Source: Escherichia phage garuso
Direction: 5' to 3' (one strand)
Length of the DNA: 64,000 nucleotides
Sequence record: MN850566.1
Shown here: piece by piece, positions 1-58,180 of the stretch
Layout: the number at the start of each line of letters is the position of its first letter
Numbering within the stretch: the stretch's first letter is position 1
Position numbers and translations under genes: made by a program
The notes under the pieces: model-generated
Databases searched by the model: none
What the model was told of the DNA's origin: nothing
Seen by the model: the letters and a program-made list of their open reading frames with translations, nothing else

Positions 1-132
1 CATAATCACACAGTTGGCATTGGTGCTCACAGTCATACAGTTAGTGGTAACACTGGTGGTACAGGTTCTGGTTCAGCATTTAGTGTAACTAACCAGTTCT
101 ATAAGCTGATGGCTTGGGTAAGAACTGCTTAA
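1..132 (+). CDS. 3' end of a tail-fibre-like protein (partial CDS, C-terminal 43 codons)
   Basis: Frame 1 reads ...HNHTVGIGAHSHTVSGNTGGTGSGSAFSVTNQFYKLMAWVRTA then TAA at 130-132; HxH motifs resemble fibre tip domains. Confidence 0.4.
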   Translation, partial: HNHTVGIGAHSHTVSGNTGGTGSGSAFSVTNQFYKLMAWVRTA

Positions 133-211
133 TCCCTTATTGACTGATTGTTAAGATGGTGTTAATATTCTTTATGGGTATTCTCACCATCTTGGCTGAT
201 GAGGTGATTAA

Positions 212-406
212 ATGCCTACAATCCTAGCAATTCTCCTAAAAAATCTAGGTAGTTTCTTCTGGAAACTCATTTTATCCCTTCTAAGTGAATACATGATTGA
301 GAAAGTGTTCTTTAAGCTTGCAAGATACCTTGCGAGTAAAACAGACACACCTATTGATGATGAGTTCGTAGATAACTTAGAAAAAGCTTTTAAGGGGGAG
401 AAATAA
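212..406 (+). CDS. hypothetical small hydrophobic protein
   Basis: ORF track 64 aa, hydrophobic N-terminal half. Confidence 0.35.
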   Translation: MPTILAILLKNLGSFFWKLILSLLSEYMIEKVFFKLARYLASKTDTPIDDEFVDNLEKAFKGEK

Positions 407-772
407 ATGAAGTGGCTAGAGGAAGCTTTTAAAAATAATATTGGTGCAATTGTAGTTGGTATTTTTAGTGTTATTGGGATGTATACCACTATGCAAGTTT
501 CAAGTGGTAAGCAAGAAGTGTCTGTCACAACAAAGTTACAGCAGCTAGATAATTATTCCAAAAGTAACTATTCAGCTATTCGTGATTTACAGTCTGACAT
601 GAGACTGATTCAGCTAGGGATGGAGAACCAGAAAGTTCAGTTAGAGAATGTTAAGGGTGAAAACGCAAAACTTACTAAAACCCTTGATAAATTCTCTGAC
701 AGTGTGAATAATCTGGCTCAATCGGTATCAGCCCTCCAAGCTATTACTGAGAAGAATACAAAAGAACACTGA
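407..772 (+). CDS. hypothetical membrane-anchored coiled-coil protein
   Basis: 121 aa; N-terminal hydrophobic segment (IGAIVVGIFSVIGMY) then heptad-rich region; followed by terminator. Confidence 0.45.
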   Translation: MKWLEEAFKNNIGAIVVGIFSVIGMYTTMQVSSGKQEVSVTTKLQQLDNYSKSNYSAIRDLQSDMRLIQLGMENQKVQLENVKGENAKLTKTLDKFSDSVNNLAQSVSALQAITEKNTKEH

Positions 773-9915: not shown

Positions 9916-12054
9916 ATAGATACCATTCTTAGCCTTCTTACGTCCTTTGCTAATCTCATGAAGAAGATTCTCATCCTGAGTAGCTCGACAAGTCAAGATG
10001 TCCTGCTCATCATTCAAGTTAAAGTAAATACTATTCAGTGTATGTGCATCAGTCCCTGAATAGACAACGTACAGGTCATTCTCAGAGTCATAGTGAAGGT
10101 ACTTATCAATCTCTGGGTTGAGATACTCATCGAAGTGTTTGCAGTAATAGCGTCCATCTTCTTGACGAGTAAACTCAATCTCTTCTTTACCTTGCGTTAC
10201 CGCTTTGGTGAACTCTTTATCACCCATAAAGTTACAAAGGAGAACTAGCTGGGCTGAGTTCATATCAACGGAGACTACGTTGGTTCCCTCTTCGCAAATC
10301 CACACCTCCCTCATAGGCGCTCCATAGACAGCAGCACCAGACGGTACGTTTACAATACCATATTGTGTCATACGTCCAGTTGAAGTGCCAAACACCATTG
10401 CACCAGCACTAAGGCGACCATCAGGACGAATCTGGTTCAACCAACCTTTTTCATCATCCTTTGAGTTCTCAATAGTTCTGCGTCGGTGCATCAAAGTATA
10501 GTACTTAGCAATCTTCTGTCCAAGCTCACCTTCAATCGTATCATAAGATGATTCAGTAAGTTTTGGTGAAGTACGGATTAAGCAAGGTTCAAGCAAATCT
10601 GTGTATTTCTTCACAGACCAGTTATGCTCGATGTACTGTACACCTTCATGTTCAACATAACTCAAACCACACCGCTCAACCATTTCCTGCCACTTAGGAT
10701 GCTTTGTAATCATCTTTTTATTGTCTTTGAAACGACAAACTTTGATAGGGCGACCATCTGAGTCTTTCTTGTAATTCCAGTCATCTGGAATCCAACCAAC
10801 TGATTTCAAGTAGTCTTTAACAACTGCTACCTGAGTCATACGAGAAACTTCAAACTCAATTGGTGTATATGGTGCATCAATCAAACCTGTGTAGCGACTT
10901 GACTCAAGTTCAAAGTGATTGACAACGTGACTGTTATAGTACTTCACAGTCTTGACTGTTTTTACTGGTTTCCAGTCTTTGCATTTTTTGCCAATCTTTG
11001 CATTCAACTCGTTGCAGATTGCACGAGCATCCTTCATCGCTACAAAACCCTCTTTGTACTCTTCACCAGTTACAGAGTTGGTTGGTGTATAGCAATTCCT
11101 TTTTTCAATGTTAAAAATCTTTGTAGTTGGCTTACCAAATGGTTTGATTTCATAAGTCTGCATCTCACCATTACGTACCTGCTGACGATACTTTGTCTTA
11201 GGGTACTTGGTAATTCTCTTCAGTCCATCTGCATGACCAAATGTTTCAACATACTCATTCCAAGCTTTTGCAAACTCTTCTCCAGTCACTTTACCTTTGG
11301 TCTTAATAGTTGGAGGTAGATGTGGTTCAACCTCTGAAGCAAGCTCATTAGTCAACTTGTCAAGTTCCTTTACATGGAACTCCATAAGCTCCTTATCAGC
11401 TTTCCAACCATTGATAGCTTGCTGGCTCATCCAGAAAGATGTCTCTTTAGCTCGCATGTAAGTCTCATAAGTGTCTATACCACACTTCTTAAGCTTGAGA
11501 TACTCGTTATCAAGTGCCCGTTTAGTTTTGGCATTAATACGGATATCTTCTACAACACGAGTGAAGATTTCTGCATTCCACACACCCCAATGTTCAATCT
11601 CTGGTTTACGGACACCGACACGAGCACCCCATGCAGCCAAACCATGAGCACCTTTATAACCCTTTGGGGTTGGCCTATCCATCCACTGAACACGAGACTG
11701 GATAAGAGAATCCTGAAAGAAATTACTCCACGGCTTACATTTTGGATTATCAAAGTTCCATAAATCAGGCGCAATGTGATTGAAAACCCACCAGTCATAG
11801 CCGAGACCATTATGGATGCAAAGACGTTTTGCCTTTAACGCAAATTCAACACCTTCACGTAAGCCGCCCTTGATGTACTTAGTGTACTTGTGACCGAGGA
11901 TAGGTTCATCTGTAAAGACCCATACAGGTGGCTCTTCATCATCAGATTTATAGTCTGCGAAAGCCATTACGTGCACTTTAGTGAACTCAAGGAGTAAACC
12001 ATCAGTTTCTGTATCACCAACCAAATGTAAGTTTTTAAAATCTACGTTTTCCAT
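9916..12054 (-). CDS. DNA polymerase (family A), 5' exon with 3'-5' exonuclease domain
   Basis: Exo I motif DTETDGL; motif A region DMNSAQL; ends in motif B ...RKKAKNGIY; start set at Met with GAGGGAG SD (ORF track 9871-12084). Confidence 0.8.
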
Positions 12055-12311: not shown

Positions 12312-12734
12312 ATGCAGAAAATGTTTGTTCACCCAGACATAGCTGACTTTGTTAGAGCTTTGCAGAAGTTGGAAGAACTTGACATTGCTGCTCAACGGGA
12401 ATATGCTCACCATCACAGGAGAATGGTTGATATACAACATGAAATAGAGTTATCTGAAAACTATGAAGATGACTTAAAATGCTCTGTGTTTGAGCATATG
12501 AAAGATGTTGCTACAGCGAGACGTAAAGCTAAAGACACAGTTGCTTTACTAGACTCTCTTAAAAAGAGGTTGCAAAGTGGTACAGACCTGTGTAATCTAG
12601 CGTCACTGATTAACGATGTTGAAACTTCTTGGGATAGGCACTATTATCCACGTTCTGAAAAGACACTTGACTTTTCTTCATCCGAAAACTTAAAATGTTC
12701 TAGAAAGAAACTTAACCAACTGAGAGAGAAATAA
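12312..12734 (+). CDS. hypothetical protein
   Basis: 140 aa ORF, first gene of plus block. Confidence 0.5.
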   Translation: MQKMFVHPDIADFVRALQKLEELDIAAQREYAHHHRRMVDIQHEIELSENYEDDLKCSVFEHMKDVATARRKAKDTVALLDSLKKRLQSGTDLCNLASLINDVETSWDRHYYPRSEKTLDFSSSENLKCSRKKLNQLREK

Positions 12735-12735
12735 T

Positions 12736-13536
12736 ATGAATATCGATGTAGAAAAGATGCTTGAAGAAAAAGGTATTGACGAAGCATTTTTAATCAATGC
12801 CGTAGAAAGCATGGCTATGATTCTTCGTGGGAACAACTACACAGAACAGTTTATGCCTTCAAGCTATAACTTGCCTGAAGACAAGTCTGATAATGGTGCT
12901 TTTGCAGAACAGGTTAACATGATGTTGACAGACACTACACTTGCTTTAGCATCTATAGTCGTAGGTGTTGATGCTCTTGCAGAGTTCATTTTTAAGGAGA
13001 TGCAGAAAAATGACTATATCTCCCTTAACTCTGAAGAAAAGGACTTATTACTGTCATTAGGTAATAATGAGTTAATTTCCATGATAATTTCATCAACAAG
13101 TGCTGTTATGGCTGCTCTTGAGAAGCGAATGGGAGAGAAGCTGTCACGATATGAAAAACTTGATTGGGGGGTAGAAGAACTAAACCCACGAATCCAAGAA
13201 ATTATCCAGCAAACCAAAGATTCTTTGGAAGAAGCTGTTGAAAATGACTCTGTAGCTGATATAGAACCACTTCAGGTGAAAGTTGCACTGATGATTCCAG
13301 CTATCTCTACGATGATGAATATCGTTGCACTAATCCAACTTTCACAGATGATGGGTGTAAGTATTGAGTTCATTGAGGAGATGACTGGTGGCGTTAGTAT
13401 GCAAGCCATCAATGATGTTTTGGTGAACATTGGTGCTTCAATCATTGAAGAAAAACTACGCATTAACTTCGGTGATGATTTTGTGAAGCAAATCTCAGCT
13501 ATGGCTGAAAAAGAGTATGCTGACCAACTGCACTAA
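12736..13536 (+). CDS. hypothetical protein
   Basis: 266 aa acidic ORF. Confidence 0.5.
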   Translation: MNIDVEKMLEEKGIDEAFLINAVESMAMILRGNNYTEQFMPSSYNLPEDKSDNGAFAEQVNMMLTDTTLALASIVVGVDALAEFIFKEMQKNDYISLNSEEKDLLLSLGNNELISMIISSTSAVMAALEKRMGEKLSRYEKLDWGVEELNPRIQEIIQQTKDSLEEAVENDSVADIEPLQVKVALMIPAISTMMNIVALIQLSQMMGVSIEFIEEMTGGVSMQAINDVLVNIGASIIEEKLRINFGDDFVKQISAMAEKEYADQLH

Positions 13537-13564
13537 GTCTTTATAAATCTTACAAGCCTCCTTA

Positions 13565-13589
13565 GTTGGGGGCTTTTTAGTAATTAAGG
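13565..13589 (+). terminator. rho-independent terminator
   Basis: AGCCTCC-TTAGTT-GGGGGCT followed by TTTTT. Confidence 0.5.
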
Positions 13590-13597
13590 GAGATAAA

Positions 13598-14341
13598 ATG
13601 AGTAATATTATCGCATTTACTGGAAAGGCACGTTCTGGAAAAGACACCTCGTGTTCTATTGTGAAGAACATCTTAGAGGATGAGTACGGCTACAATGTTG
13701 CAGTAATGGCCTATGCAGACAACCTTAAACTATCTGCATCAAAGATATTTGACCTGACTTGGAATGACCTGTATGGTGAAACTAAAGAGACTCCACAGGT
13801 TTTTGATTTATCATATCCTGAATTGATGTTCAAAGTTACAGAAGCTATGGAGTTTACCTTCAAAGATGAACGTTACCATATGGATTTTAAGCTTATGTCA
13901 GAACTAACCGGACGATTAATCATGGAGCTTAAGAAGATTGCTAAACCGACTCTATTAACACGTCTAGGATTTAGCAACAAGTATAAATTCTCATCAAGAC
14001 AAATTCAACAGATTTGGGGTACTGAAGTCATCCGTAAAGTTATGGGTGACAAATTCTGGGCTAAAGACCTTGAAAAACGAATGGCTCGCTTCTTTGAATC
14101 TTGTTCACTTATGAATCAAGAGGGTGTTGTTTTAATCAGTGACTTAAGGTTTGACTCTGAAGCTGAGTGGCTGAGTAGATTTGCACACCAGACTATTGAA
14201 GTAAAAAGAGACAATGTGGACAAGGTTTCATCACATGTTTCAGAAAATGGAATTTCTACCAAATATGCGCGTGACATTATCCATAATAATGGTACTCTTG
14301 CAGACCTTGAAAGTAAGCTAAGAGCTATCCTGAAGATTTAA
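13598..14341 (+). CDS. deoxynucleoside monophosphate kinase
   Basis: N-terminal IIAFTGKARSGKDT matches T4 gp1 dNMP kinase P-loop FLSGVKRSGKDT. Confidence 0.7.
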   Translation: MSNIIAFTGKARSGKDTSCSIVKNILEDEYGYNVAVMAYADNLKLSASKIFDLTWNDLYGETKETPQVFDLSYPELMFKVTEAMEFTFKDERYHMDFKLMSELTGRLIMELKKIAKPTLLTRLGFSNKYKFSSRQIQQIWGTEVIRKVMGDKFWAKDLEKRMARFFESCSLMNQEGVVLISDLRFDSEAEWLSRFAHQTIEVKRDNVDKVSSHVSENGISTKYARDIIHNNGTLADLESKLRAILKI

Positions 14342-21620: not shown

Positions 21621-23855
21621 ATGATTAAGACAATTAAAAAATCAAACGGTACAGTAGTAAGCTTTGACCCAGAAAGACTGAATAAGTGGGCATCATGGGC
21701 AGATAAACGTGGGATTATCTGGTCAGAAGTCACTATGGAAGCCATGAAACGTGTCTATGAGGGTTGCACTACAAAAGAGATGCACCAAGCCATGATTGAT
21801 GTTTGTGTTGATAAACAAACTCAAGAGTACTCAGATATGGCTGGACGACTGCTTTTGGGTATTATCTACAAAGAAGCCTTTGGAGGCTTTACTAAGGTTC
21901 CTACGCTGGTTACCTTCGTTAAAAATATGGAGAGAGCAGGACTTTGGGAGAAGATGGATTATTCACAGGAAGAGCTTGAATACCTGCAAGGTTACATCGT
22001 ACACTCAAAAGATATCTCTTACGGTTATGCAGTCTTGAAACAGTTCAGAGACAAGTATGGTATCCGTGATATTAAAACAGGAAGACTTTTTGAGTCACCA
22101 CAATTTATGTTTATGGGTATGGCTATGAAAGCCTTTGAGAAGCAACCAAAGCACCGTAGACTGCAAGATGTTATCAAGCTGTACACTTACCTATCTGACC
22201 TGAAGATTAATGCTCCTACGCCTTATTTAAATGGTTTAAGAGCTACTAAATCAGGTTATGCGTCATGCTGTTTGATTAAGGCGAATGATACTGCTGAATC
22301 TCTAGGTATTGCTGCAAAGGTTGCCTATGACATGACCACAAAGCAAGCTGGTATTGGGATGCTGATGGAGACTCGCACTATTGGTGATGGCATCCGTCAA
22401 AATACTATTGAACACATGGGTAAGCTGCCTTATTATAAGCTTGTACGTTCATCTGTAGAGGCAAACAAACAGAAGAGTCGTGGTGGTTCAGCTAATAACT
22501 TCTACACTGCTCTAGACCCGCAGATTGAAGATTTACTGCGTTTGAAGCACCCTACAACGGTTCCTTCTAAACGTATTAATGAGATGGACTACTCATTCGG
22601 CACAAACGATTATTTCTGGCAGTGTGTTCAGTATGATACAGATTGGTTGCTATTCTCTTACAAAGATGCACCAAAACTCTATGACATGTTCTACACAGCA
22701 TCTGCTGATGAGTTTGCTATGGCAGTTGGTCACGCAGTACATTCAGGAGTTAAGCACAGACGAGTAAAGGCTCGTGAAATTGCTAAGCTGTTTATTCAAC
22801 AGCGTTATGCTACAGGTCGTGTGTATCCATTCTTCACTAACAATGCAAACACGCATACACCATTTAAAGAGTCATTGAAGATGTCAAATCTTTGTATGGA
22901 AATTGTGTTGCCAGTGTATGGTTTTGAGAAAGAGACAGACCTTTACAGAGATGATGCTGTGAAAGAGGATGGTGAGGTGGCTCTTTGCTTCCTAGCTAGT
23001 TTGGTTGCAGGGAGAATTTCAGAAGATGAATACGCTGACGTTGCTTATTATGCTCTTGCAATGGTTGACTCCGTTATTGACCTTATGGATTATCCGTATC
23101 CGTCGATGCGTAACCATGTTCAGAAGCGTCGTTCTGTTGGGATTGGCCTTACAAATGTGGCTCATTACCTTGCGAAGAACTACGTGAACTACTCTTCACG
23201 AGCAGGTAAAACGAAGCTTCATGAGCTTGCTGAAATGCACTCTTACTATCTGCATGAAGCCTCTCTGAGACTTGCTAAAGAGCGTGGTGTTCCAGAGTAC
23301 ATGAAGTTCACTAAGTATCCTGAAGGCTGGGTTCCTCCAAAGACAGCTAACAAGAAGATTGATGAAAAGCATGATGCAAAACTAAGATATGATTGGGATG
23401 ACTTAGCACAACGTATCAAAGAGAATGGTGGAATCCGAAACTCTGTATTAGAAGCTTACATGCCTAATGAGAGTTCTTCACTAGCAACTAATACGACAAA
23501 TGGCTTGTACCCAATTCGTGACTTTATTTTAACTAAAAAATCTGCAACTGGTAACGTACTGTTTATTGTTCCAGATTATGAAGAGTTGAAGTATGTTTAT
23601 GAAATTGCTTGGGATATTGACACCTTTGATATGATTGATTGTTATGCAATTGTTCAAAAGTTCACTGGTCAAGCTATTTCTTCAGACTTCTATGTTGACT
23701 ATGCAAAGTCTAAGAAGGTATCATTGGCTCAAGCTTTGAAGTACATGATTTATGCCAACTCAGTTGGTATGAAAACCATGTACTACCTTAACAGTCGCAT
23801 TGGTGTAGGTAAATCTGCACTGCAAGATGCTTATTGCGAGGGTTGTGGTGTTTAG
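21621..23855 (+). CDS. nrdA: ribonucleotide reductase class Ia, alpha subunit
   Basis: 744 aa; N-terminal ATP-cone-like region, size and neighbourhood (followed by nrdB and glutaredoxin). Confidence 0.85.
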   Translation: MIKTIKKSNGTVVSFDPERLNKWASWADKRGIIWSEVTMEAMKRVYEGCTTKEMHQAMIDVCVDKQTQEYSDMAGRLLLGIIYKEAFGGFTKVPTLVTFVKNMERAGLWEKMDYSQEELEYLQGYIVHSKDISYGYAVLKQFRDKYGIRDIKTGRLFESPQFMFMGMAMKAFEKQPKHRRLQDVIKLYTYLSDLKINAPTPYLNGLRATKSGYASCCLIKANDTAESLGIAAKVAYDMTTKQAGIGMLMETRTIGDGIRQNTIEHMGKLPYYKLVRSSVEANKQKSRGGSANNFYTALDPQIEDLLRLKHPTTVPSKRINEMDYSFGTNDYFWQCVQYDTDWLLFSYKDAPKLYDMFYTASADEFAMAVGHAVHSGVKHRRVKAREIAKLFIQQRYATGRVYPFFTNNANTHTPFKESLKMSNLCMEIVLPVYGFEKETDLYRDDAVKEDGEVALCFLASLVAGRISEDEYADVAYYALAMVDSVIDLMDYPYPSMRNHVQKRRSVGIGLTNVAHYLAKNYVNYSSRAGKTKLHELAEMHSYYLHEASLRLAKERGVPEYMKFTKYPEGWVPPKTANKKIDEKHDAKLRYDWDDLAQRIKENGGIRNSVLEAYMPNESSSLATNTTNGLYPIRDFILTKKSATGNVLFIVPDYEELKYVYEIAWDIDTFDMIDCYAIVQKFTGQAISSDFYVDYAKSKKVSLAQALKYMIYANSVGMKTMYYLNSRIGVGKSALQDAYCEGCGV

Positions 23856-47457: not shown

Positions 47458-47532
47458 GTCTGTAAATTGTCAATCAACGGGGAGGGAATGACCTTCCCCA
47501 CTAAATGAAGTCCTAAACTGGAGATTCTAAAA
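47458..47532 (+). repeat. promoter/stem-loop cassette type B, copy 3
   Basis: GTCTGTAAATTGTCAATCAACGGGGAGGGAATGACCTTCCCCACTAAAT... conserved leader. Confidence 0.55.
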
Positions 47533-47874
47533 ATGGCTTATGTAACCGTAATTACCGATAAAGCTGGCGCATCTTGGTCAACTCAGGTTAGTGATAAGAT
47601 GTCGCCTATGCAGTGCCTAAAATACTTTGAACAGTGGAACAAAGGCGAGGACACAAGCCCCTTTCACGTAATGCAGATTATTCATGTAGACAATGAAGGG
47701 AAGAAAACAACTCTGAATAGTGAGTACTACGCAAGCCGTTTTGAAACGAGAAGTAAAGCAATGAAGCTCTTACGTGAGGCCGGATATGGTCACATTGCCG
47801 CGATAATCTGGGATGACCTTCTAAAAAGTCAACGTATCAGCTATGTAAAGCCTGAAAAAATATTCATCAGTTAA
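47533..47874 (+). CDS. small early protein (cassette gene 13)
   Basis: 113 aa ORF. Confidence 0.5.
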   Translation: MAYVTVITDKAGASWSTQVSDKMSPMQCLKYFEQWNKGEDTSPFHVMQIIHVDNEGKKTTLNSEYYASRFETRSKAMKLLREAGYGHIAAIIWDDLLKSQRISYVKPEKIFIS

Positions 47875-48035
47875 TCAATAACTTACAAAAAACTTTTAAA
47901 AAAGTGTTGACAATACCCCTTGACATTGGTAACTTTGTTCGAGGGGGTTTATCTAAAAGGGATTCACTTAAAAGATTCTTTATAGATAAGCTTAAAAATT
48001 GCTTGCAATCAGCTATCAAAACAAGTAAATTACTA

Positions 48036-48093
48036 ATCAACGGGAGGGATGACCTTCCCCACTAAATAAAATCCTTAAACTAGGAGAGTCAAA
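48036..48093 (+). repeat. promoter/stem-loop cassette type B, copy 4 (degenerate)
   Basis: TCAACGGGAGGGATGACCTTCCCCACTAAATAAAATCC...GGAGAGTCAAAATG. Confidence 0.5.
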
Positions 48094-48624
48094 ATGAACA
48101 AGTTTAAAGCTATCAACTTCATTCGTTCAAATGCTGTAATGTCAAAACCTGTAAAAGACACATACGAATTTCGCTGCAATGGGGTACACTTTGCAACCAT
48201 CACTAAGTCAGAAAACGGGGCTTATTACATTCATCGCCGTAATGTTTCTACTGTTGTAGTCTCTCACTTTATGCAAGCTGTAGCGGAATTATTACCGTTA
48301 TTCTTAGAGATTTACTTAGATGAGTGCAAAAACGTTCGTAACCACGTTAAAAACCTTTTAAACGGTTATAAAATGGCTTATGAACGTTCTATCAAGTCCT
48401 TAAACAAGTTTTATAAAGCCCCTGTAAATACTGTTTCAATGGCTTACAGTGTAAGCGGTGAGTTGGTTAGTCTCTTCGAAGTGGAAGAAATCGAACTATA
48501 TAACTCACGTCCTAGCGGTTACTCTAAGACACTAGGAGAGGGCTTATCTTTCAATATCAAGAACTTAGAAAAAACTTTAAAAGATATTGAAAAAGATATT
48601 GACGAGACAATCAAAAGTCTGTAA
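48094..48624 (+). CDS. small early protein (cassette gene 14)
   Basis: 176 aa ORF. Confidence 0.5.
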   Translation: MNKFKAINFIRSNAVMSKPVKDTYEFRCNGVHFATITKSENGAYYIHRRNVSTVVVSHFMQAVAELLPLFLEIYLDECKNVRNHVKNLLNGYKMAYERSIKSLNKFYKAPVNTVSMAYSVSGELVSLFEVEEIELYNSRPSGYSKTLGEGLSFNIKNLEKTLKDIEKDIDETIKSL

Positions 48625-48703
48625 ATTGTCAATCAACGGGGAGGGAATGACCTTCCCCACTAAATAAAACCCTTAATCAACTTCCTAAACTGGAGATTCT
48701 AAA
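48617..48703 (+). repeat. promoter/stem-loop cassette type B, copy 5
   Basis: Same GTCTGTAAATTGTCAATCAACGGGGAGGGAATGACCTTCCCC block as copy 3. Confidence 0.55.
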
Positions 48704-48952
48704 ATGGCTACTATCCGCGCAACTGTTAACGAATTCGGCTTCTACTCTCTGGACGTTAAATTTGACCTTGTAGGTACTGATAACACCTTTGAAATGGTGA
48801 AAGGCCTTATCAGCCAGACCATCAGTGACTACAACCCCTCTGATGAATTCTGGAAAGAAACAAAACAGGAAGTTCTCAAAGAGGGTTATACATACCACTA
48901 CTGGGGTGAAAAAATTGTCTCCCTGTACTACGACAAAAAAGGCACTAACTAA
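48704..48952 (+). CDS. small early protein (cassette gene 15)
   Basis: 82 aa ORF; last gene of plus block. Confidence 0.5.
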   Translation: MATIRATVNEFGFYSLDVKFDLVGTDNTFEMVKGLISQTISDYNPSDEFWKETKQEVLKEGYTYHYWGEKIVSLYYDKKGTN

Positions 48953-48990
48953 ACGCCGCAACGGGGCTAAATAGCCCCAGATACCTTTAC

Positions 48991-49017
48991 AGCCCCTTTC
49001 CCATAGGGGCTTTTTTA
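48991..49017 (+). terminator. rho-independent terminator ending the plus-strand block
   Basis: AGCCCCT-TTCCCAT-AGGGGCT followed by TTTTTT. Confidence 0.6.
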
Positions 49018-49019
49018 CG

Positions 49020-50550
49020 TCTTATCAAATCCCTTATACAACCCTTTCCCTTTCCTTTCCAGAATCTTATCAGACCTTAAAAAGCAATAACTCTATAGTC
49101 TACTCTATAGCCTTTTATCAAATCAACTTAAATATAAGCCCATAACCCGAAAGGGAAGGGCAACCGTTTAAACGCTCTATAAAGCTCTATAACAGCCTTA
49201 TCAACCTAACTTAAGGGATTGCATTAACTCACCCTAAAAAGCCCTTTATAAAGCTTCCCAGAGACTTAAAAGAATCTTATAAGGGTGTAAGCTTTATCAT
49301 CTCGTTAGCTATCTTGTGAACTACTAAACAAGCCCCTTGATAGTAACTGAAAAGTATGTTATAGGGGCTTTAAAGTTACTTTGAAGTAGCTTAAAAGTTA
49401 CGTAAATGCTAGCCCCCTTAACATTTTCTTAACAATTTCTTAACAATCCCTACATAGTTATGCTTTTAAGACACTTGTTAGCAACTTGTTAGCCCCTTGT
49501 TAAATCTCTGTTAAGACCACGTAAAAGCCTTGTAAGAACCTTTGACATAGCCTTAAAAGCTCCTGTAAAGCCCTATAAAGAGCTATCTGTACAGTTGGGG
49601 GGTAAATACTAGGAAGAGACTTAAAAGGGGTTATACAGAGCTATACAGAGCTTTTAAGAGGTATGTTTAAAGAATCACTAAGAAAGGAAAGGGAACGATA
49701 AGAAAAGAGTAGTGACCATGTTAATAGCTTGTTAAAAAGATTAAACACTTGTTAGAGACTTGTTAATTATCTTAACAAAATAACTCTTAACATTTAACTA
49801 CTTAGCTCTTGTTAGTCATCTGTTAAGATTCTGTAAAGCCTATTCAGCACTTGTTAAGAAACTGTTACACCCTTGTTAGTTCTGTTAAGAAACTGTTAAG
49901 ACCTTTGAAGAGTTGTTAAGAAGATGTGAGAACTGTTAAGAGATTGTTAAGGATATTTTAAAATTTTGCAAAGTACTTGTAAGGGAGCTGTTAAGGGCTA
50001 CCAAGCAGATATACATCCTAGACAGATATTTTTCAGTTCCTTCAAAGACCCTAAAAAATGACTTGATAGTCCTATTTTATAAAAATTTTAAAATTCTGAA
50101 TAATTACCTATACAGTCTTTTAAAAATACAGGTAGAAACAGGCTTATAAGATACCTTGTTAGTACCGTGTTAGACCTTGTGAGATAAGGTCTGTAAAGAT
50201 ATTCCTGTTAAGTTTGTTAAAACAGTCTATATAGAGGCTTAGTAATACCTAGTGAACACCTATAGAGGGTATCATAGCTAACCTAGAGATTAAGAGGTGT
50301 ATAGGAGCTTCTAAGAGGGTATAGAGAGATGGTTAAGGTGATTGTATAGGTTGTTTAGAAGGCTTGTTAGAAGAGTGTTTAGAAGGGCTATACAGAGGGG
50401 CTATTAAGACCACTAGATAGTTACTAAGATACTATATAGTACTATATAACTATATAGAGAGTAAGATTAAGAAGGTTGTTAAGAAGGATGTTAAGAAGGA
50501 TAGATATTTTATTCACATATGATGGTGACCCAGAGGTTGGGACAACCGAT
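49020..50550. repeat. ORF-free region with more than 20 TGTTA(A/G) repeats phased at about 11 bp
   Basis: e.g. CTTGTTAGCAA-CTTGTTAGCCC-CTTGTTAAATC-TCTGTTAAGAC near 49470-49515 and TGTTAAGAAACTGTTACACCCTTGTTAGTTCTGTTAAGAAACTGTTAAGA near 49850-49900; no ORF of 60 aa or more on either strand. Confidence 0.7.
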
Positions 50551-50551
50551 G

Positions 50552-50584
50552 AAATTTTATAAAAATTAAAAAGCCCCCAACTAA
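50552..50584 (-). terminator. rho-independent terminator ending the minus-strand block
   Basis: Minus strand AGCCTCC-TTAGTT-GGGGGCT followed by TTTTTAATTTTT. Confidence 0.5.
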
Positions 50585-50602
50585 GGAGGCTCTTAAGATA
50601 TT

Positions 50603-51196
50603 TTAAATCAGTGTTTCCAGAACTGTCTTCAGTGATGACTTGGTTGTCTGATAAAAATGAGTAAATCCATTGTTGTTATCAAACACCTGCATCATGATAT
50701 CATCTCCCTTGATTGGGTATACTCGGATATCATAGTGGAACCCATTAAAGACAGCAGAACCATTACAGAATGCACTAAAGTCATCCACTGAGATATACTC
50801 TTCATGACCTGTGATTTTTATGCAAACACCTTTACTCGGTCTCTTAGGGTTGATATCCTCCATCACAGACATACTCTGTCCACCAAGAGATATCATAGTG
50901 ACCACTTTACGGTTCTTCTGTCTAAAGTACATCTTAACTTTCTGTAAAGTGTCTTCATAGAACGGATAAGACTTCTCTACAAAGATGCCTTCTAATGGCT
51001 CTTTGCCGTTTACAATACCTCTGGTATGACGTACTGAGAAGATAAGTTGCTCTAGTATGTCAAGGCTTTCTTCGGAGAGTGCTTCCCGAATATCATTCCA
51101 GTCAAGGACTAGGTAGTTGCCTTCAACTTCTTTTAAGTTATCTTTTTTCATATCTATCACACCATTATCGTAAAACTTGGTAATCTGGGGCTGCAA
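50603..51196 (-). CDS. hypothetical protein
   Basis: 197 aa ORF. Confidence 0.5.
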   Translation of the reverse strand: MQPQITKFYDNGVIDMKKDNLKEVEGNYLVLDWNDIREALSEESLDILEQLIFSVRHTRGIVNGKEPLEGIFVEKSYPFYEDTLQKVKMYFRQKNRKVVTMISLGGQSMSVMEDINPKRPSKGVCIKITGHEEYISVDDFSAFCNGSAVFNGFHYDIRVYPIKGDDIMMQVFDNNNGFTHFYQTTKSSLKTVLETLI

Positions 51197-57808: not shown

Positions 57809-58180
57809 ATGAAAAACAGAACAAACAAAGGCCAGTTTAAAAAAGGCCAATCTGGAAACCCATCTGGAAGACCAAAAGGCTCTCGTAACAAAAGCTCACT
57901 TGTAAAAGCTCAACTGACCATTGATAATTCTGCTGAGTTTGCTGCAAAACTGTTTGAGGCGATTGTTACAAGGGACGCTGCTAAGCTTGCAGAGTTCGGG
58001 TTAAACACAGACGACGTAACCATCAAGAGTATGATTGAGGTCGGTAAAACCATCTTTACTCACTCAGCAGGTGAGATGAAAGCACTTGCAGCAGATACTA
58101 AGAAAACCCCTGATAATGGTGGTCAGCCACAGACAGATAACAAACCAACGTTCTCTGCTGTAGCGACTCTCAAAAAATAA
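57809..58180 (+). CDS. hypothetical protein with GNPSGRPKG motif
   Basis: 123 aa; N-terminal KKGQSGNPSGRPKGSRNK basic motif. Confidence 0.45.
   Translation: MKNRTNKGQFKKGQSGNPSGRPKGSRNKSSLVKAQLTIDNSAEFAAKLFEAIVTRDAAKLAEFGLNTDDVTIKSMIEVGKTIFTHSAGEMKALAADTKKTPDNGGQPQTDNKPTFSAVATLKK

Follow-up and report, generated by a model that had tools for sequence, protein, structure and literature searches.

Helically phased, conserved TGTTAR sites fill a gene-free region of Escherichia phage garuso that corresponds by homology to a direct terminal repeat and its flanks

Introduction

The window analyzed here is a stretch of 64,000 nucleotides from Escherichia phage garuso (MN850566.1), a Felixounavirus (Felix O1-like myophage), and it contains a gene-free stretch at positions 48953-50602. 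Comparison with related phage records shows, by homology, that positions 49412-50002 within this stretch correspond to a short direct terminal repeat (DTR) of 591 bp, which would be found at both ends of the packaged DNA and once at each concatemer junction. The explanation that we favor with good confidence is that the region is such a concatemer junction, that its DTR is full of phased and selected copies of the motif TGTTAR, and that a protein complex bound to them would mark the boundaries of the repeat for duplication.

That Felix O1-like phages have a DTR was already evident from PhageTerm notes and one GenBank annotation, and the gene-free region is therefore largely explained. In the literature searched, the mirror-image modules and internal anatomy of the repeat appear to be undescribed, as do the approximately 25 selected sites in a 10.4-bp phase across its whole length. 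The same appears to be true of the genus-specific arrays in the flanks and of the predicted match of the sites to a super-consensus box for the host regulator ArcA. The original genome paper on Felix O1 lists other repeats and does not discuss the present region, and the accessible part of the PhageMaP study of phage Bas63, which was gene-targeted, reports nothing on it.

Position of the genome ends

Among 256 phage records with a match to the region, Escherichia phage warpig is the best (94.5%); for Salmonella phage Felix O1 (12315-13927 of AF320576) the figure is 91.5%. At least 80% of the region is covered by 204 phage records, and all of those among the matches listed belong to the Ounavirinae. 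Among the same matches, near-full coverage is seen in Felixounavirus, Mooglevirus, and Suspvirus, and Erwinia Kolesnikvirus gives short matches. Several GenBank records open or close within the region at the same query position. Four records carry an exact direct repeat at both record ends, of 581 bp in vB_EcoM_D4 (PP886228) and vB_EcoM-Pr103Blw (MW481326), 592 bp in ECP2307 (PP461118), and 651 bp in NBEco005 (MN994499). All four terminal repeats map to 49412-50002 of the window, and the first bases are identical in the four records (GCCCCCTTAACA, extended GCCCCCTTAACATTTTCTT), as are the last bases (TGTTAAGGGCTACC). These shared ends identify the region as a concatemer junction composed of right-end flank, DTR, and left-end flank. 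By the same homology, 48953-49411 is shown to correspond to unique non-coding DNA beside the right end and 50003-50602 to that beside the left end. Since the DTR maps inside the window, the window is a collapsed assembly with one DTR copy.

The Pr103Blw record annotates its positions 1..581 as a 'short direct terminal repeat region', and PhageTerm assigned this phage to DTR packaging with two 581-bp repeats (PMC8303462). PhageTerm likewise called a DTR for D4 (PMC11737134), Erwinia Felix O1-like phages received a short-DTR call (PMC11984208), and repeats of 439 bp, 'similar to phage T7', were reported for a Hafnia Kolesnikvirus (PMC8928762). The record of Erwinia phage Hena2 opens at the homologous left end (CCACTTTTACATTTCGTTAACAAC), and its homologue of the right boundary lies near nt 438, in agreement with the published 439 bp. 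Identical ends in the four records, the start of the Hena2 record, and the PhageTerm reports together indicate that the DTR termini are fixed, sequence-defined, and non-permuted.

One other record that closes within the DTR, that of Citrobacter phage BSwM KMM2 (OP902295), has a 64-bp overlap between its ends, which was rejected as an assembly artefact and not a DTR. In many deposited Ounavirinae genomes the record is opened at an arbitrary point, or spurious coding sequences (CDS) of 30-40 aa have been called here, as in pEC-M719-6WT.1. The 64-kb window does not include the TerL gene (223-1824 in Bas63).

Borders and coding content

A + strand gene stops at 48952 and a - strand gene stops at 50603. 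The largest open reading frames (ORFs) between 48975 and 50603 encode 35 aa (49641-49748, -) and 31 aa (49966-50061, +), which upholds the statement of the original prediction that some 1.6 kb contain no ORF of 60 aa or more on either strand. The convergent terminators that it described were also found. The last + strand gene is followed by an intrinsic terminator at 48991-49017 (+), in which a hairpin at 48991-49011 (AGCCCCTTTCCCATAGGGGCT) precedes TTTTTT, and the first - strand gene (50603-51196) by one at 50569-50594 (-), in which the hairpin AAGAGCCTCCTTAGTTGGGGGCTTTT, read from 50594 to 50569, precedes a T-run. Both border terminators are also annotated in the records ASO1A and Mordin. 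Transcription of the flanking gene blocks is thus directed at the genome ends and stops at these two terminators. No annotated relative has genes in the region, where the features are limited to automatic 'repeat_region' entries, terminators, and clearly spurious CDS of 30 aa, if there are any.

A region of this length without ORFs might instead specify a long non-coding RNA or small RNAs, or it might have no sequence-specific function, as a neutral minisatellite or the remnant of decayed coding sequence. We consider this very improbable. Weak sigma-70-like hexamers are present, giving 11 promoter-like sites compared with 6.3±2.4 in shuffled sequences, a difference that is not significant, and these hexamers arise because TTAACA resembles TTGACA. 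The - strand of the DTR folds slightly better than shuffles (z = -2.1), which is explained by the terminal inverted arrays, and the + strand gives z = -1.2. A search of Rfam returned no match at or above the gathering score (best E=0.23 and 0.4, well short of it), and both neighboring operons terminate at the region borders. Moreover, conservation falls on the motif and not on stems, and it is above that of the neighboring genes, which excludes neutral decay.

Number, spacing, and phase of the TGTTAR sites

Between 48960 and 50602 the TGTTAR core occurs 25 times on the + strand and 5 times on the - strand, or approximately 18/kb on both strands, compared with approximately 0.8/kb per strand in the other 62 kb. 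Dinucleotide shuffling (1000 shuffles) gave 3.4±1.9 copies with a maximum of 10, against the 30 observed, and reproduced neither the density nor the phasing. The longer form YTGTTARR, initially put at more than 20 copies, was counted 19 times (16 +, 3 -) in the same interval, slightly under that figure. The DTR contains about 25 TGTTA(A/G) sites, and nearly all units of its internal arrays have the same orientation. Pairs of the form TGTTA-N6-TGTTA number 13 in the region and 1 in the other 62 kb, so that 13 of the 14 pairs in 64 kb are found here, as expected of a local array and not of a dispersed operator. A second motif class, CTATAYAG, is represented 6 times on the + strand and 3 times on the - strand of the region and twice elsewhere.

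Adjacent + strand sites are spaced at 10-12 bp in 10 cases, compared with 0.009 in shuffles, and the pairwise distances between TGTTAR sites cluster at 11, 20-22, 31, 42, 51-53, 62, and 73 bp. The 11-bp spacing noted at the outset reappears as a 4-mer autocorrelation peak at lag 11 in 49412-50002 (0.10 vs a mean of 0.014), and the flanks have their own peaks, at lag 12 in 50003-50602 and lag 11 in 48953-49411. The proposed helical phasing was borne out by a Rayleigh test: the 19 TGTTA sites on the + strand of 49412-50002 show coherence at 10.15-10.4 bp (R of 0.73-0.74), a level attained by 0.1% of random placements when any period between 8 and 14 is allowed, and the coherence of these sites extends over approximately 510 bp. 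Local spacing of 11 bp combined with a phase of approximately 10.4 bp over about 500 bp places the sites on one face of the helix.

Phased direct repeats beside invariant AT-rich blocks (49952-49973 and 50072-50088; GATATTTTAA/ATTTTGCAAAG and CTATTTTATAAAAATTT) are also the classical layout of a replication origin of the iteron type, in which TGTTAR would be the iterons and the AT-rich blocks the unwinding element. The accessory T7 promoters phiOL (405) and phiOR (39229), which serve as secondary origins of that phage, adjoin its terminal repeats. Additionally, two IMG/VR contigs (L055 and L059) have a similar CTGTTAAT array (x6) followed by a DnaA box (TGTGGATAA) in what looks like an origin. 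Direct repeats with AT-rich blocks fit a packaging site equally well, however, and several observations make an origin here unlikely. DnaA boxes with up to 1 mismatch occur at 3.0/kb in the region and 3.0/kb elsewhere, no exact IHF consensus is found in the region, where IHF sites are unenriched, and a Pfam search of 68 proteins gave no initiator-like or Rep-like match, although this last is weak evidence. On the cumulative GC-skew curve the region falls at the maximum (about 2.6), with the minimum at the divergent junction close to window position 12,000; since phage GC skew tracks transcription, this argues only weakly against an origin. The arrays also match the DTR and its boundaries exactly, as an origin would not need to.

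The original prediction had named origins, centromere-like partition sites, and nucleoprotein assembly sites as models for such phasing, and only the generic nucleoprotein assembly site holds. The origin is unsupported, and a partition site is implausible, as no ParA or ParB is annotated in Bas63, the flanking proteins belong to no Pfam family, the direct repeats are not parS-type palindromes, and the phage is virulent.

Conservation and selection

Eleven genomes from Felixounavirus, Mooglevirus, and Suspvirus and the unclassified pEC-M719 were aligned. In the other genera the TGTTAR columns of the DTR are 93% identical to the window, compared with 71% for non-motif columns, and most individual sites are retained in 9-11 of the 11 genomes. 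As judged from this alignment, the motif is shown to be under stronger purifying selection than the spacers. The longest invariant block, of 22 nt, runs across the right terminus (AGGGCTACC|AAGCAGATATACA, 49994-50015), and conservation of the flanks equals that of the DTR (51-60% invariant columns). In inter-genus BLAST comparisons with Mooglevirus and Suspvirus, the region and its adjoining genes align continuously and the remaining flanks are fragmentary or unaligned.

The phasing is found in all 13 of the Escherichia, Salmonella, Shigella, and Citrobacter phage genomes compared, with R=0.72-0.83 and a best period of 10.15-10.5 bp, and it persists although the length of the DTR varies from 560 to 651 bp among them. 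In the one indel inspected, that of warpig, exactly one 11-bp unit was lost. Hena2 has TGTTAAG arrays in its first 438 nt, and its right-end flank (record positions 83681-84251) carries a different 11-bp-spaced motif, YTTCTAAR (e.g. CTTCTAAACAGTCTTCTAAACCG and CCTTCTAAGTCTCTTCTAAGAGC). Flank motifs therefore vary by genus, whereas the DTR motif is constant. The region is conserved in at least four genera, and this conservation marks it as a non-coding functional element, while the measured phasing agrees with the view of the original prediction that its sites share one face of the DNA.

Anatomy of the repeat and its flanks

The DTR, placed at 49412-50002 by the ends of the four records, begins with a left-terminal module (49418-49445, -) of three TGTTAA copies, which read TTAACA on the + strand at 49418, 49429, and 49440 with 11-bp spacing. 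This module begins 6 bp from the left terminus, is kept in 8-11 of the 11 genomes, and has a homologue of its triplet at nt 6-45 of Hena2. Array A (49476-49514, +) follows with four TGTTAR copies at exactly 11-bp spacing, of which three are retained in 11/11 genomes, and then the degenerate copies TGTAAG at 49531 and TGTAAA at 49564. The center of the DTR, about 150 bp, is without TGTTA and contains a G-run, a purine-rich tract, and two tandem copies of TATACAGAGC (49631-49652, +), which belong to the CTATAYAG class and were given a period of 10 and a 100% match by Tandem Repeats Finder. In array B (49719-49792), + strand TGTTAR copies at 49719, 49730, 49750, and 49761 are joined by - strand copies at 49772 and 49787, and the invariant blocks are TGTTAAAAAG, CTTGTTAATTATCT, and TAACAAAATAAC. 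Array C (49810-49950, +) comprises approximately 12 TGTTAR-type units with spacings of 9-31 bp and a 31-bp super-period; Tandem Repeats Finder reports periods of 10 and 31, and each site is retained in 9-11 of the 11 genomes. The right-terminal module and its junction with unique DNA (49978-50015, +) contain TGTAAG at 49978 and TGTTAAG at 49989, 11 bp apart, and the final TGTTAA core ends 8 bp short of the right terminus.

The two boundaries are in mirror orientation, the left reading TAGCCCCCTTAACA-N5-CTTAACA and the reverse complement of the right end reading GGTAGCCCTTAACA-N5-CTTACAA. This symmetry was also detected by a repeat finder, as an inverted repeat, I1, in which 49418-49455 pairs with 49924-49961 (38 nt, 79% complementary).

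The non-coding right-end flank (48953-49411) contains the repeats CTTATCA, CTCTATAG/CTCTATAA, and CTTAAAAG, and 51% of its columns are invariant, including the blocks CAATAACTCTATAG and CTTAAAAGAATCTTATAAGG, in the 11 genomes (at least 4 genera). In the non-coding left-end flank (50003-50602), 60% of columns are invariant. It contains an AT-rich invariant block at 50072-50088, a TGTTAG pair at 50157 and 50168, and repeats detected by Tandem Repeats Finder, with CTATATAG at 50226-50237 and 50430-50458 and the 12-bp TTAAGAAGGATG at 50467-50501.

Proposed mechanism of end formation

We suggest that the TGTTAR sites bind a protein that oligomerizes head to tail, with direct-repeat recognition in the style of OmpR/PhoB, or that the DNA wraps on an oligomeric protein. 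The resulting nucleoprotein complex would mark both boundaries of the DTR. The mirror-image modules could then let one strand-specific terminase cutting activity make staggered cuts at both boundaries. As in the classical T7-type model, a nick in the top strand at the left boundary would be paired with one in the bottom strand at the right. Copying of the 591 bp by strand displacement would then produce a second repeat, so that both daughters end up with a complete DTR. Capping or synapsis of the ends is a further possible role of the complex. The internal arrays, nearly all of whose units point one way, might be a directional platform for assembly or initiation, or might serve synapsis of the repeats. 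The protein that binds could be an unannotated phage protein, small terminase or other, or phosphorylated host ArcA (ArcA~P).

A number of points weigh against this explanation. The termini were placed through homology, from four concordant records and the literature, and not from reads of the present isolate, and a role of the arrays in cutting or packaging is inferred only. The two termini are imperfectly symmetric, with the motif at 6 nt on one side and 8 nt on the other and two extra C on the left. Other conserved motifs, in the approximately 150-bp center of the DTR and in both flanks, are not accounted for by it. A comparison of 68 phage proteins with Pfam gave only a Cro/C1-type helix-turn-helix (HTH) protein and a DUF5681 protein, and no small terminase or site-specific binder. 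To our knowledge, the function of the repeat arrays in SRL and SRR, the segments beside the terminal repeat of T7, has not been established.

Candidate binding proteins

The first nine proteins compared, namely seven encoded beside the region, the annotated regulator, and a small ORF upstream of TerL, gave no function in Pfam or NCBIfam. Their PHROGs are all 'unknown' except for the Cro/C1-type HTH regulator, which is encoded far from the region. Among 59 further hypothetical proteins of Bas63, a close relative, none matched Trans_reg_C or a winged HTH (wHTH) family in Pfam, and no small terminase is annotated. The 123-aa DUF5681 protein (57809-58180 of the window, +) has a GRPKG motif (KGQSGNPSGRPKG) and an N-terminal KGQSGNPSGRPKGSRNK that resembles an AT-hook (GRP). 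Its gene opens a + strand block that runs through the tRNA cluster toward the large terminase, and searches for a PHROG function and a PDB relative returned neither. This protein is a possible, if loose, candidate for a DNA-binding or small-terminase-like function.

The sites recognized by ArcA~P are direct repeats of TGTTA at 11 bp center to center, most of them with three to five repeats at 11 or 22 bp (PMC3798270; PMC4173790). The phage region has such additional repeats as well, in runs of three or four at 11 bp together with spacings of 20-22 and 31 bp. It is therefore possible, if on balance rather unlikely, that host ArcA~P binds the arrays, either as a recruited factor in the architecture or capping of the ends or by being titrated, which would link protection of the ends, processing of concatemers, or the metabolism of the host to anaerobiosis. 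This proposal is about which protein binds, and it does not conflict with the explanation of the region as a DTR. With the 115 E. coli ArcA boxes listed in Table S3 of Park et al. 2013 as input, a position weight matrix (PWM) gave 20 sites of at least 9 bits in the 1.65 kb, compared with 3.0±1.8 in shuffles. At a threshold of 15 bits the region has 8 sites and the rest of the window (62 kb) has 2; the 87 kb of Bas63 contain 13 such sites, 9 of them within the DTR. Scores of 22.7 and 22.5 bits were reached by two overlapping boxes at the left terminus, and none of the 115 chromosomal boxes scores as high (maximum 21.5, mean 15.7). ArcA-like sites of 17-24 bits occur at the termini in Mooglevirus, Suspvirus, pEC-M719, and Erwinia Kolesnikvirus Hena2, so that such sites are shared by five genera, and the ends of T7, taken as a negative control, reach a maximum of 11.6 bits. 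The degenerate copies TGTAAG, TGTGAG, and TGTTAC are variants that are also found in chromosomal ArcA boxes, and the core motif stays constant between genera while flank motifs differ. Other facts in favor of ArcA are that no phage wHTH or Trans_reg_C protein was found among the 68 scanned against Pfam, that the phage encodes the anaerobic reductase NrdDG, and that Bas63 is reported to lack a RecBCD inhibitor. Judged from the sequence, ArcA~P should bind the region.

By established practice, however, Felix O1-like phages are routinely grown aerobically, with little ArcA phosphorylated, and unphosphorylated ArcA does not bind at up to 1 µM (PMC4173790), so that a function of ArcA cannot be essential. 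The phage motif conserves G at +6 and A at +7 (TGTTAAGA), which the 115-box ArcA consensus (TTGTTAATAAAATGTTAA) does not. Approximately 25 sites phased over 500 bp far exceed ArcA operators, which have at most 5 repeats, and the sites are without promoter context, as promoter-like matches are not significantly enriched, both flanking operons terminate at the borders, and the region contains no gene start. The literature searched contained no paper connecting arcA with Felix O1. Arrays with TGTTA at 11 bp are also common in unrelated viral contigs, which makes the format generic. A scan of IMG/VR for 4xTGTTA at 11 bp found at least 120 loci, most of which are pure 11-bp tandem repeats of unknown hosts and thus uninformative on a shared host factor.

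If ArcA were the binder, the DTR would be the densest known cluster of ArcA~P boxes, with three-repeat sites 6-8 bp from each end that would surpass any on the E. coli chromosome. The host regulator, which is in the cell before the phage DNA arrives, would coat, cap, or synapse the ends or be soaked up, lifting respiratory repression; we give this version a low probability.

Two side observations concern related sites elsewhere. Four of the IMG/VR contigs with 11-bp TGTTA arrays (L031, L134, L087, and L128) form one family that shares AATGTTAAGCCAATGTTAAGAAATTGTTA in a non-coding stretch. Within the window, an ArcA-box-like three-repeat site (TTGACTGATTGTTAAGATGGTGTTAA) at 137-165 scores 15.1 bits (15.1-16.7 bits at 23053-23081 of Bas63); it is intergenic, lies just downstream of a tail-fiber gene in Bas63, and is one of the two sites of at least 15 bits outside the terminal region.

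Other features of the window

GATC is absent from the 64-kb window, where a trinucleotide Markov model predicts approximately 234 copies, which suggests strong selection against Dam/MboI-type sites. CCGG (16 vs 38), CATG (214 vs 305), and CTAG (99 vs 143) are also depleted, observed compared with expected. Upstream of the gene-free region, self-matches revealed intergenic repeats of approximately 60-70 bp between small + strand genes, at about 47460-47540, 47990-48110, and 48620-48680. They are the counterparts of repeats of 57 bp described in the genome paper on Felix O1, contain a hairpin GGGGCTTA…TAAGCCCC whose loop carries CTTAAAAG/CTGTAAAG, and are probably terminator or promoter cassettes.

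Significance

Felix O1-like genomes have mostly been deposited as circularly permuted assemblies, with this region blank or annotated with spurious ORFs of small size. Ends at 49412 and 50002 set the start of the genome, the order of its genes, and its real length, with one extra copy of the DTR. The mirror-image modules, the one-face array with a 10.4-bp phase, and the gain or loss of whole units offer a mutable substrate for learning how the ends are defined and duplicated in a DTR phage other than T7. A functional ArcA match would mean that a virulent phage employs a two-component regulator of its host at its chromosome ends, a new kind of phage-host coupling, and that the redox state of the host in the gut is linked to how the genome ends are handled. 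This would bear on the use of Felix O1-type phages for typing of Salmonella and E. coli and for biocontrol in the anaerobic gut.

Comparison with known systems

The terminal repeat of the enterobacterial phage T5 is approximately 10 kb long and coding, and its 'injection stop signal' region, which has DnaA boxes, is tied to two-step transfer of the DNA. Like the present region, it is a long gene-free stretch, rich in repeats and palindromes, in or near a terminal repeat and is thought to bind protein. DnaA boxes are unenriched here, however, and Felix O1-like phages have no known two-step injection.

Repeated motifs are recognized by terminases at the hexamers TGATCA/G that flank the cut in P1 pac, at the R-sites of lambda cosB, and at the pacL and pacR boxes of SPP1. 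As in these systems, where copies of a 6-7-bp motif flank the cleavage point and are read by an oligomeric packaging protein, the present region has a short motif in many copies, although there are about 30 candidate sites and two cut sites 591 bp apart where the others have one.

The ArcA~P operators of E. coli (icdA, astC, acs, and others) share with the phage sites the TGTTA core, direct repeats at 11 bp with extras at 11 or 22 bp, and high PWM scores, which in the phage match or exceed those of the best sites on the chromosome. The phage sites differ in being away from promoters and at the physical ends of a phage genome, in their number (25-30 repeats compared with 2-5), and in the extra conserved 'GA' after TGTTAA.

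T7 offers a parallel in plan. Its array motifs are unrelated in sequence to those found here and the present phage is an unrelated myovirus, so that the likeness is one of analogy and not homology. The T7 repeat measures 160 bp and not 591 bp. Here the arrays fill both repeat and flanks with a long-range 10.4-bp phase, the boundary modules are mirror images, the motif is TGTTAAG, no early promoters stand at the end, and genes are transcribed endward. Both phages nevertheless have a unit-length linear genome with a fixed, non-permuted terminal repeat and arrays of short direct repeats at about one helical turn. The T7 junction plan SRR-TR-SRL resembles flank, DTR, and flank, and the PhageTerm class given for relatives of the present phage is a DTR 'similar to T7' (PMC8928762). 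At the T7 ends (NC_001604), CCTAAAG occurs three times inside the 160-bp repeat and in approximately 8 copies with a 13-bp period in SRL, producing an autocorrelation peak at lag 13, and repeat arrays at DTR junctions are thus of a known kind.

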